Shown in pieces: positions 24,324-25,690 of a DNA stretch of 64,000 bases. The DNA is taken from assembly GCF_050920415.1 (NCBI RefSeq), contig NZ_CP169309.1; one strand, written 5' to 3'. Below the pieces are notes generated by a model. That model was given only the letters and a program-made list of their open reading frames with translations. It did no database searches and had not been told where the DNA came from. How positions within the stretch are numbered: position 1 is the first letter of the stretch; the number at the start of each line of letters is the position of its first letter. The translations under genes were made by a program, and so were the position numbers. Source of the stretch: Escherichia coli. GTDB taxonomy: Bacteria; Pseudomonadota; Gammaproteobacteria; Enterobacterales; Enterobacteriaceae.

Positions 24324-25690
24324 TCAATCATCATCCTTGCAGTTGATAAGAATTTCTGCCTCTTTTACAACTATCTTATTACGTCCGGTTTCTTTCGCTT
24401 CATATAGTGCATTATCAGCCATTCGATAGATCTCATTCGGATTTAACGCACTTCCCTGAGTCACCACAGCGCCAATGCTAATCGTCACTTTTTGCGGTAT
24501 GGCGTATTCAGGATTATCGCCTGTCAAACGCTCTACATTTGCCCTTATCCTTTCGGCTAAAACTTTCGCGCTTTCAGTATCGGTCTCCGTCAGCAAGACG
24601 CCAAACTCTTCGCCGCCAACGCGTGCTAAAAGGTCATTTGGTCGTATGCTTTTCCCAATGATGCTCACCACTGTTTTTATCACCTGATCGCCAACCGGAT
24701 GCCCCCACGTATCGTTAACTTTTTTAAAGTGATCGATATCCATAATCATGACACAATAAGACGTTTTTTGGGCTGATGCTGATTGAGCCTTCAGTTCATT
24801 GAAAAAATAATTCCTGTTAAATATATTAGTTAATGGATCGCGATGGGCAATGTTCTTTGTTACTCGTAGCGCACTGAAAATATGGCACATAAATATTACC
24901 ATAACGGTTAATTTACTGACTACTTCAATAGTGCGGCTAATATACCAAGTGGACACACTATACCTGCTCATAAATAACAGAGAGATATTATACAGCACGG
25001 CACAGAAAGCAATCACTGATACTCCATTCCAGATATCACAGCGTAAACCATTAAAGTATAGATTAACCAAAAGCAAGATTAACCACATGAAAATCATTAT
25101 GGTAACATATGAGGTTTTCCAGACTACCTGACCATTTTCATTTGTTAACTCGGCAATATGTAAACTGTAGTCATCATAATGACTACTTAGCATGTGAGCA
25201 ACTGCCGCCCCCCCAAAAATAAAAAACAGGCTTATACACAATGTCATTTTTTTGGAAAAAAACAGCGTTTCTTATTGTTTTCACTAACTTTATTCACCAG
25301 CGCTAGCAATATTAACATGCACAAACTCATCTGACGAAACAAATAATAAATTGCAATATCATTTTGTACAACGCTGCTTATCAAATGCCCCTCAATAAAT
25401 TGCTGAATGATAATGACAGTTTTAACAAAGTAAATCAAACAACTCAGAAACGCTAAACTAAGTATACAGTTTGAAAATTGCACACGATCATAAATGAAAT
25501 ACAATTGCATGAAAATAAATGCAACGGTATCGATAAAAAATAAAGCAATCATAACCATTAGATAGGTTGATCGTGGAACAACCTCCTCAACGGTTGGCTG
25601 ATTAAACCAACTATTTACCAAAACGAATGCAAGCCCAAACAATAAGCTCACCAATACAGTACTACTAATTCCCAAATAGTCTTTTTCCAT
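24324..25690 (-). pseudogene. dgcT: diguanylate cyclase DgcT (YcdT) with reading frame interrupted: membrane N-terminal ORF (25244..25780) and GGDEF C-terminal ORF (24324..25247) in different frames
   Basis: C-terminal ORF has GGEEF active site; N-terminal ORF is multi-pass hydrophobic; the frames switch inside a T7-GG-A7 tract at 25247..25262; could equally be a sequencing error. Confidence 0.6.

Follow-up and report, generated by a model that had tools for sequence, protein, structure and literature searches.

Contraction of a homopolymer run splits the dgcT reading frame in a rare Escherichia coli allele class

Is the diguanylate cyclase gene dgcT (ycdT) genuinely broken where its reading frame appears split within a homopolymer tract, or has a base been lost in sequencing? 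The question is raised by a 64,000-nucleotide segment of an Escherichia coli chromosome running from bssS through torS (contig NZ_CP169309.1; hereafter the window), in which dgcT lies on the minus strand between a tRNA-Ser(GGA) gene and pgaA, and for which a first-pass annotation had offered both answers. Here, we find that one base is missing from a coding-strand run that holds eight thymines in intact alleles, that the shortened run is present in several independent sources, and that it occurs on more than one haplotype. With a probability of roughly 0.8, we read this as a genuine, heritable and recurrent T8-to-T7 contraction by slippage, with DgcT lost or strongly reduced, in the course of near-neutral decay.

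The proposed course of events would begin with slipped-strand mispairing at a homopolymer hot spot, converting T8 to T7 on the coding strand, in a tract that appears to be confined to two rare, AT-rich allele classes of dgcT. The contraction would cut a 455-aa MASE4-GGDEF cyclase in a basic loop between the fourth and fifth predicted transmembrane (TM) segments, leaving an N-terminal fragment of 148 aa and, out of frame with it, a 307-aa open reading frame (ORF) that probably lacks a ribosome-binding site; loss or strong reduction of DgcT would be the most likely outcome. The same slip may recur and persist as neutral or near-neutral decay because dgcT is weakly expressed and often missing in E. 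coli.

The broken frame and the lost base

Reading across the locus, pgaA begins at 26281 on the plus strand, dgcT occupies 25690..24324 on the minus strand, and the tRNA-Ser(GGA) gene at 23589..23676 is followed by ghrA. The gene is thus divergent from pgaABCD, on the serX/ghrA side, which is the place of orthologous DgcT/YcdT. Together with 90% amino-acid identity between the repaired protein and K-12 DgcT, this position bears out the earlier naming of the gene.

At the break, the plus strand reads TCATTTTTTTGGAAAAAAACAGCGTTTCTTA (25244..25274), with a GG pair at 25254..25255 between two runs of seven (Table 1); the coding strand reads AAC AAT AAG AAA CGC TGT TTT TTT CCA AAA AAA TGA CAT TG. 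The N-terminal ORF starts with MEKDY at 25690, the start codon chosen by the Prokaryotic Genome Annotation Pipeline (PGAP), or as far upstream as a TTG at 25780 in the ORF listing, and its product ends in CFFPKK. The ATG of the C-terminal ORF (25247..25245) precedes the stop of the N-terminal ORF by one base, forming an ATGA overlap, and this second ORF runs to 24324. Because the closest upstream stop in the downstream frame is a TAA at 25274..25272, the two frames are jointly open only over 25248..25271. This is the layout that the first-pass annotation had described, with a stop at 25244..25246, a GGDEF-ORF start at 25245..25247 and the same shared interval, and rereading the sequence confirms it at each point. 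Its further claim, that one base gained in either run would restore a protein of about 450 aa, also holds: in silico, one T added to the coding T-run gives 455 aa with the natural sequence RCFFSKKMTL, and one A added to the coding A-run gives 455 aa with the substitution S146P. Taken together, the two ORFs match intact 455-aa proteins over their whole length, which rules out a chance ORF pattern. With its frame broken at codon 146, the gene is a pseudogene member of the DgcT family, labeled "frameshifted" by PGAP at the same place in strain MFDS1022581.

Comparison with intact alleles identifies the run that has changed. In a megablast search of dgcT against 5,426 complete E. coli genomes, only 16 matched the window gene at ≥99% identity, most of the others standing at about 90%. 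Thirteen of the 16 have one extra base, one has four extra, and two (MFDS1022581 and N96) have the length seen in the window. PGAP calls these last two "frameshifted," and calls the gene of Z0117EC0005 intact (455 aa, WP_032302839.1); the only name that it gives to this type of dgcT is "GGDEF domain-containing protein." The closest intact alleles are 99.7% identical to the window gene, encode 455 aa and differ from it by a few single-nucleotide polymorphisms (SNPs) and a single indel, coding T8 versus T7. A one-base change of a mononucleotide run relative to near-identical intact alleles is the signature of a slipped-strand pseudogene. As the coding A-run has seven bases in both, the missing base belongs to the plus-strand A-run at 25256..25262; the plus-strand T-run at 25247..25253, considered as the mutated run, is ruled out by its unchanged length. 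The comparison of homopolymer lengths proposed in the first-pass annotation therefore points to one of its two candidate runs.

The T8 tract is itself unusual. The window dgcT belongs to a rare, divergent allele class, here called W. The common alleles, of K-12 and B2 type and present in thousands of genomes, carry AATTTATTTTCC at this place (CGC AAT TTA TTT TCC, that is, T3AT4) and have no run. Among complete genomes, T8 is found only in class W and in a second rare class, O, represented at ≥99% identity by 16 and 14 genomes, respectively; class O is 95% identical to class W, and its intact form reads AG-T8-C-A8 (NCTC10444, EC2). E. coli has at least four dgcT allele classes altogether. The window gene is AT-rich (37.5% GC versus 49.3% for the whole window), and three runs of at least seven bases lie within 55 nt of it.

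The gene also forms a local island of divergence. Positions 24367-25905 are 83-94% identical to K-12/B2-type alleles, with the lowest values (83-84%) at 25108-25306, around the tract; unlike the adjoining dgcT, the intergenic region and pgaA (25906-27305) are 95-100% identical.

Reality and recurrence of the contraction

If the short run were a sequencing artifact, its exact product should not be encountered again and again in unrelated data. We looked up exact products in a collection of 15 billion proteins from public genomes and from metagenome and Logan assemblies. The exact 148-aa truncated product occurs in 35 index blocks of this collection, of which 24 contigs were read. Its sources include CP169399.1 (MFDS1022581), GL872204.1 (GCA_000190995.1), GCA_974481785.1, three Logan run assemblies and two ENA metagenome assemblies, one of them with a contig named k111_2514, a style that we take to be that of MEGAHIT output from short reads. 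In each case examined, the 307-aa ORF follows directly. T7 is thus recorded by several assemblers and from several sources, among them the closely related isolate MFDS1022581, and belongs to the DNA of the organism, not to the sequencing process.

The closest relative makes the same point in another way. Between 23658 and 64000, the window differs from MFDS1022581 by six substitutions, and the window has one extra 181-bp repeat unit; the two are different isolates, and both have T7. Apart from that unit, no other indel was found over the roughly 63 kb compared, homopolymers included, and dgcT is the only pseudogene or frameshift among the 63 features annotated over the corresponding region of MFDS1022581. 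Any error confined to a single assembly is ruled out. The broader proposal, that sequencing or assembly has shortened the homopolymer and that the strain truly has T8 and an intact dgcT, draws on the fact that runs of seven to eight identical bases are typical error sites of long-read and 454 data, on the uncertain quality of the frameshifted records of N96 and O78 strain 3, and on GL872204.1 being an older, scaffold-level assembly. Set against this are the same T7 product in many independent samples put together by different assemblers, metagenome contigs and Logan assemblies included; the agreement at T7 of two isolates that differ by SNPs and a repeat unit and by no other homopolymer indel; and the single frameshift in 63 features. 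We regard such an error as almost certainly not the explanation. Of the two options in the first-pass annotation, the evidence supports the genuine frameshift over the homopolymer error: there is no sign of an 8-nt run in the lineage of the window, and intact genes elsewhere have a different sequence.

The contraction is not the property of one clone. In a haplotype table comparing about 2 kb over 22 loci, T7 stands on at least three SNP haplotypes. On haplotype A, it is found in the window, in MFDS1022581 and in three Logan contigs, with a T8 sister, AP025751.1, one SNP away. Haplotype B has T7 in three contigs and T8 at four loci (CP027579.1 among them) that are the same at all other variable sites. 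Haplotype C has T7 in one metagenome contig (L013) and is similar to the T8 strain 2020CK-00188. A single clonal origin of T7 is ruled out by this table as the sole explanation. The tract of N96, CGC-T9-CC-AAAACAA, is also one base short.

Changes in the opposite direction are seen as well. The predicted T9 (+1) product of class W is present on eight contigs. In class O, O78 strain 3 has T7 and is flagged by PGAP, the same truncated product has been deposited for KTE102 (EOW12145.1), T9 occurs on four contigs, and an A8-to-A7 variant occurs on one. The +1 variants and the events in class O show that the run itself mutates repeatedly; such recurrence, at a T8 run that only two rare allele classes possess, is a minor new point. 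The collection contains no exact class W product of T7A8 (the compensated form), T6, A6 or A8, and a compensating second-site change (T7A8) accordingly finds no support there. The repaired protein occupies 526 index blocks and the T7 fragment 35, so that T7 makes up about 6% of the occurrences of this allele.

Other runs in the same 60-nt stretch of dgcT vary too in class O. A frameshifting T7-to-T8 expansion is seen about 80 nt before the main tract, and G-run length variants about 30 nt after it; the C-terminal ORF product of the G-run variants is found on 35 contigs. These homopolymer frameshifts are recorded in MLI023K1 (L012), near gene position 348, and in three class O proteins (P0048, P0049 and P0061).

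Protein consequences and residual expression

Table 1. Coordinates of the split dgcT gene and of the elements at its break.
Feature	Position	Strand	Basis
dgcT (ycdT) pseudogene, class W, MASE4-GGDEF, 1-nt deletion	24324..25690	-	PGAP call on the same interval in MFDS1022581; alignment with intact 455-aa alleles; 90% to K-12 DgcT
N-terminal ORF, 148 aa, including TGA 25246..25244; predicted TM1-TM4 of MASE4	25244..25690	-	ORF and hydropathy; exact product in public assemblies
C-terminal ORF, 307 aa (MTLCISL...); predicted TM5-TM8 of MASE4 and intact GGDEF	24324..25247	-	ORF and hydropathy; Pfam and NCBIfam GGDEF matches
RPND I-site	24633..24644	-	Motif in C-terminal ORF
GGEEF active site	24603..24617	-	Motif in C-terminal ORF
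Coding-strand T7 (A7 on plus strand), site of the lost base; T8 in intact alleles	25256..25262	-	Sole indel versus 99.7%-identical intact alleles
Coding-strand A7 (T7 on plus strand), length as in intact alleles; CC-A_AAA_AAA-UGA-C in broken frame; its final A begins the internal ATG	25247..25253	-	
ATGA stop/start overlap of both ORFs; no Shine-Dalgarno-like motif in 25 nt upstream	25244..25247	-	
Interval open in both frames (25248..25271), with TAA of downstream frame at 25274..25272	25248..25274	-	Read from sequence

The intact or repaired 455-aa protein has the architecture of a membrane-bound diguanylate cyclase. Pfam MASE4 (PF17158) covers residues 41-274 (E = 1.6e-64), with eight hydrophobic segments by hydropathy, and GGDEF covers residues 282-439 (E = 4.5e-50). 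Among NCBIfam models, only the generic GGDEF domain model TIGR00254 scored above its cut-off (160 bits versus 37.4), and no DgcT-specific equivalog was matched. In the window, the MASE4 domain is split at residue 146. The N-terminal fragment retains hydropathy peaks at residues 7-25, 43-61, 76-94 and 114-132, and the break falls in a basic loop (residues 133-149, NKVSENNKKRCFFSKK) that separates segments 4 and 5 of the eight. This loop is probably cytoplasmic, because the GGDEF domain must be cytoplasmic. The RPND I-site, five residues upstream of GGEEF, and the GGEEF motif itself are both intact in the C-terminal ORF. With the membrane domain cut in this way, DgcT is most likely null or strongly reduced (hypomorphic) in T7 strains, as judged from the sequence.

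Two routes could, however, keep the frameshift leaky or tolerated. In the first, a ribosome shifting by -1 on U_UUU_UUU would restore the exact wild-type protein, and one shifting on A_AAA_AAA, before the weak UGA-C stop, would yield the S146P form; slippage of RNA polymerase in the runs could have a similar effect. In the second, termination and reinitiation at the ATGA would produce TM5-TM8 with the GGDEF domain, either alone or reassembled with the four-helix N-terminal fragment. Both homopolymers are indeed slippery heptamers (X_XXY_YYZ) in phase with the broken upstream frame, TG-T_TTT_TTT-CC-A_AAA_AAA-TGA, and -1 is the shift that a 1-nt deletion needs. Under overexpression in E. coli, 25-60% suppression of 1-nt deletions has been reported for C-AAA-AAA (PMC1851650), and non-programmed -1 suppression of single-base deletions reaches up to 1-10% (PMC10861913). 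The second route is made conceivable by the position of the cut in an inter-helix loop and by a C-terminal fragment with intact RxxD and GGEEF; moreover, diguanylate cyclase pseudogenes of Shigella with a methionine just after the premature stop still raised cyclic di-GMP (c-di-GMP) (PMC11327459).

Against substantial leakage, A_AAA_AAA and U_UUU_UUU are far less shift-prone in E. coli than A_AAA_AAG (PMC5009743). No stimulatory RNA structure is detectable, the minimum free energy of a 126-nt segment that spans the site and the sequence after it being no better than that of shuffled sequence (z = -0.71), and no Shine-Dalgarno-like sequence was found upstream of either the slip site or the internal ATG. 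In most orthologues dgcT is read in one frame, so that there is no conserved programmed frameshift site; with neither a stimulator nor conservation, a programmed -1 ribosomal frameshift is ruled out. Finally, dgcT is very weakly expressed (PMC5635695, PMC4287979), and a rescue of a few percent would therefore amount to little protein. Low-level rescue or reinitiation at the ATGA is possible on the strength of these motifs; that the frameshift is leaky or tolerated in this sense strikes us as unlikely.

Known systems help to place these routes. The A-rich -1 heptamers of dnaX (A_AAA_AAG) and pDEST17 (C-AAA-AAA, PMC1851650) resemble that of dgcT, where a 1-nt deletion needs a -1 shift, and the G7 "savior indel" of herpesvirus thymidine kinase (PMC5009743) shows, as an earlier case, that slippage on a homopolymer run can partly rescue an indel in that run. 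Unlike these cases, dgcT has no downstream stimulator, upstream Shine-Dalgarno sequence or conservation, and rescue would be non-programmed and probably low. The diguanylate cyclase pseudogenes of Shigella flexneri (PMC11327459) share a break upstream of an intact GGDEF domain and an in-frame ATG that lies on or beside the stop, and such genes are reported to be still able to raise c-di-GMP; they are, however, dgcM, dgcN, dgcE and dgcQ.

Decay or switching, and the surrounding sequence

What is known of dgcT is consistent with a dispensable gene. Divergent from pgaABCD and very weakly expressed, it has been suggested to feed synthesis of the polysaccharide poly-N-acetylglucosamine (PGA) (PMC4287979). 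In K-12, DgcT is below detection, under CsrA repression, and does not contribute to the rise of c-di-GMP in a pdeH mutant (PMC5635695). Shigella flexneri has lost the gene by deletion (PMC11327459), and the megablast search with it drew no match in about 1,260 of the 5,426 complete genomes. In enteroaggregative E. coli (EAEC) 55989, ycdT is frameshifted by a 7-bp insertion (PMC4287979). This closely resembles the case in the window, with the same gene, divergent from pgaABCD, frameshifted so as to leave a truncated N-terminal sensor fragment. The differences lie in the lesion and its setting: 55989 has the 7-bp insertion and an IS1 between ycdT and pgaA, whereas the window has a 1-nt T8 contraction in another allele class, a rare one, and retains an intact pgaA-dgcT intergenic region and intact pgaABCD (pgaA, 807 aa).

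Variable homopolymers in reading frames also invite another interpretation. In Haemophilus, Neisseria and Campylobacter, contingency loci use slipped-strand mispairing in homopolymers for phase variation, and the T8 tract could by analogy be a selected switch that turns DgcT, and hence a c-di-GMP input to PGA synthesis, reversibly ON and OFF. Like such loci, dgcT has a mononucleotide run within its ORF that shows -1, 0 and +1 lengths in natural isolates: T7, T8 and T9 are found on haplotypes that are the same or nearly so, -1 and +1 variants occur in two allele classes, and OFF alleles stand on several haplotypes that have ON sisters. Three runs of at least seven bases are packed into 55 nt, and the divergent pgaABCD operon makes a product that depends on c-di-GMP (PMC4287979).

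The differences weigh more. The great majority of E. coli dgcT alleles are of the T3AT4 form and lack the run, so the tract is not conserved. At eight bases it is also short; a run of this length should slip at a far lower rate than the classical contingency tracts in E. coli proficient for mismatch repair, where rapid reversible switching is not expected. T7 is common to strains that have since gained SNPs and a change in repeat number, so OFF has been stable on that time scale and is stably inherited in the lineage. No compensated or reverted allele was identified, the T7A8 product being absent from the collection, and two T7 strains have independent pgaA nonsense mutations, which look more like decay than switching. 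We therefore consider a selected switch very unlikely; a better fit is relaxed selection on a gene that has a mutational weak point built into it. A hybrid would have the tract act as a slow switch between ON (T8) and OFF (T7/T9), with T7 leaking a low level of wild-type or S146P enzyme through -1 slippage. If true, this would provide a three-level dial on the local c-di-GMP supply to the adjoining PGA machinery; we count it as a long shot.

Several points tell against the preferred account of recurrent contraction, loss of DgcT and near-neutral decay. T7 in the window itself is known from an assembly. Recombination may have carried the T7 tract from one haplotype to another in place of independent mutation. 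A share of about 6% of the entries of the allele is compatible with neutrality without proving it. We infer both that function is lost and that this carries no selective cost; every T7 carrier seen keeps the downstream ORF intact, with its start overlapping the stop, and the two in-phase -1 slippery heptamers may allow some full-length or split protein.

With these points weighed, the mutation is real but an ordinary inactivation at a slippage hot spot. Homopolymer slippage pseudogenes are a well-known kind of event, the PGAP flag already stands in RefSeq, and no new mechanism is opened. For annotation, the frameshift flag on dgcT can be trusted and does not mark an assembly error. Carriers of the window lineage are probably without one source of c-di-GMP, and a link of dgcT to PGA-dependent biofilm is suggested by gene position. 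Given the weak expression of DgcT and its frequent absence, any effect on phenotype is probably small. In the two rare classes, the T8 run would be the main way in which such alleles are lost, an example of plasticity in the E. coli GGDEF/EAL gene set.

Two T7 strains (L013 and L015) carry different early stops in pgaA, with products of 66 and 60 aa (window-equivalent positions 26479 and 26462, respectively); a 60-aa pgaA product is also found in one T8 strain (L021). In the pgaA-dgcT intergenic region, an A9 run at 26203-26211, about 70 nt upstream of the pgaA start, varies as A7, A8 or A9 among carriers of this dgcT class.

On the other side of dgcT, a 181-bp tandem array (23658-24320; 3.7 copies, 98% alike) begins inside the 3' end of the tRNA-Ser(GGA) gene. 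Each unit opens with the final 19 nt of the tRNA (AATCCCCCCCTCACCGCCA), after which come a hairpin and a T-run, and contains the same 43-aa ORF. Three units match the Rfam family RtT (RF00391) at 41.4-41.7 bits, just below its gathering score of 45. Copy number varies among near-identical strains, the window having one unit more than MFDS1022581, and dgcT and the tRNA gene lie 285 nt apart in Z0117EC0005, against 829 nt in MFDS1022581 and 1009 nt in N96.

Elsewhere in the window, a 100-bp tandem repeat between phoH and efeB (33778-34004; 2.3 copies, 94% alike) matches Rfam naRNA4 (RF02564, 72 bits, minus strand) and is therefore a known element derived from repetitive extragenic palindromes. 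Three further Rfam matches reach gathering level: Ysr251 at 32519-32712 (194 bits), which overlaps phoH in its 3' part but lies on the other strand; ES056 at 17899-17990 (119.7 bits), within the 5' end of csgD; and ES036 at 49957-49999 (38.5 bits).

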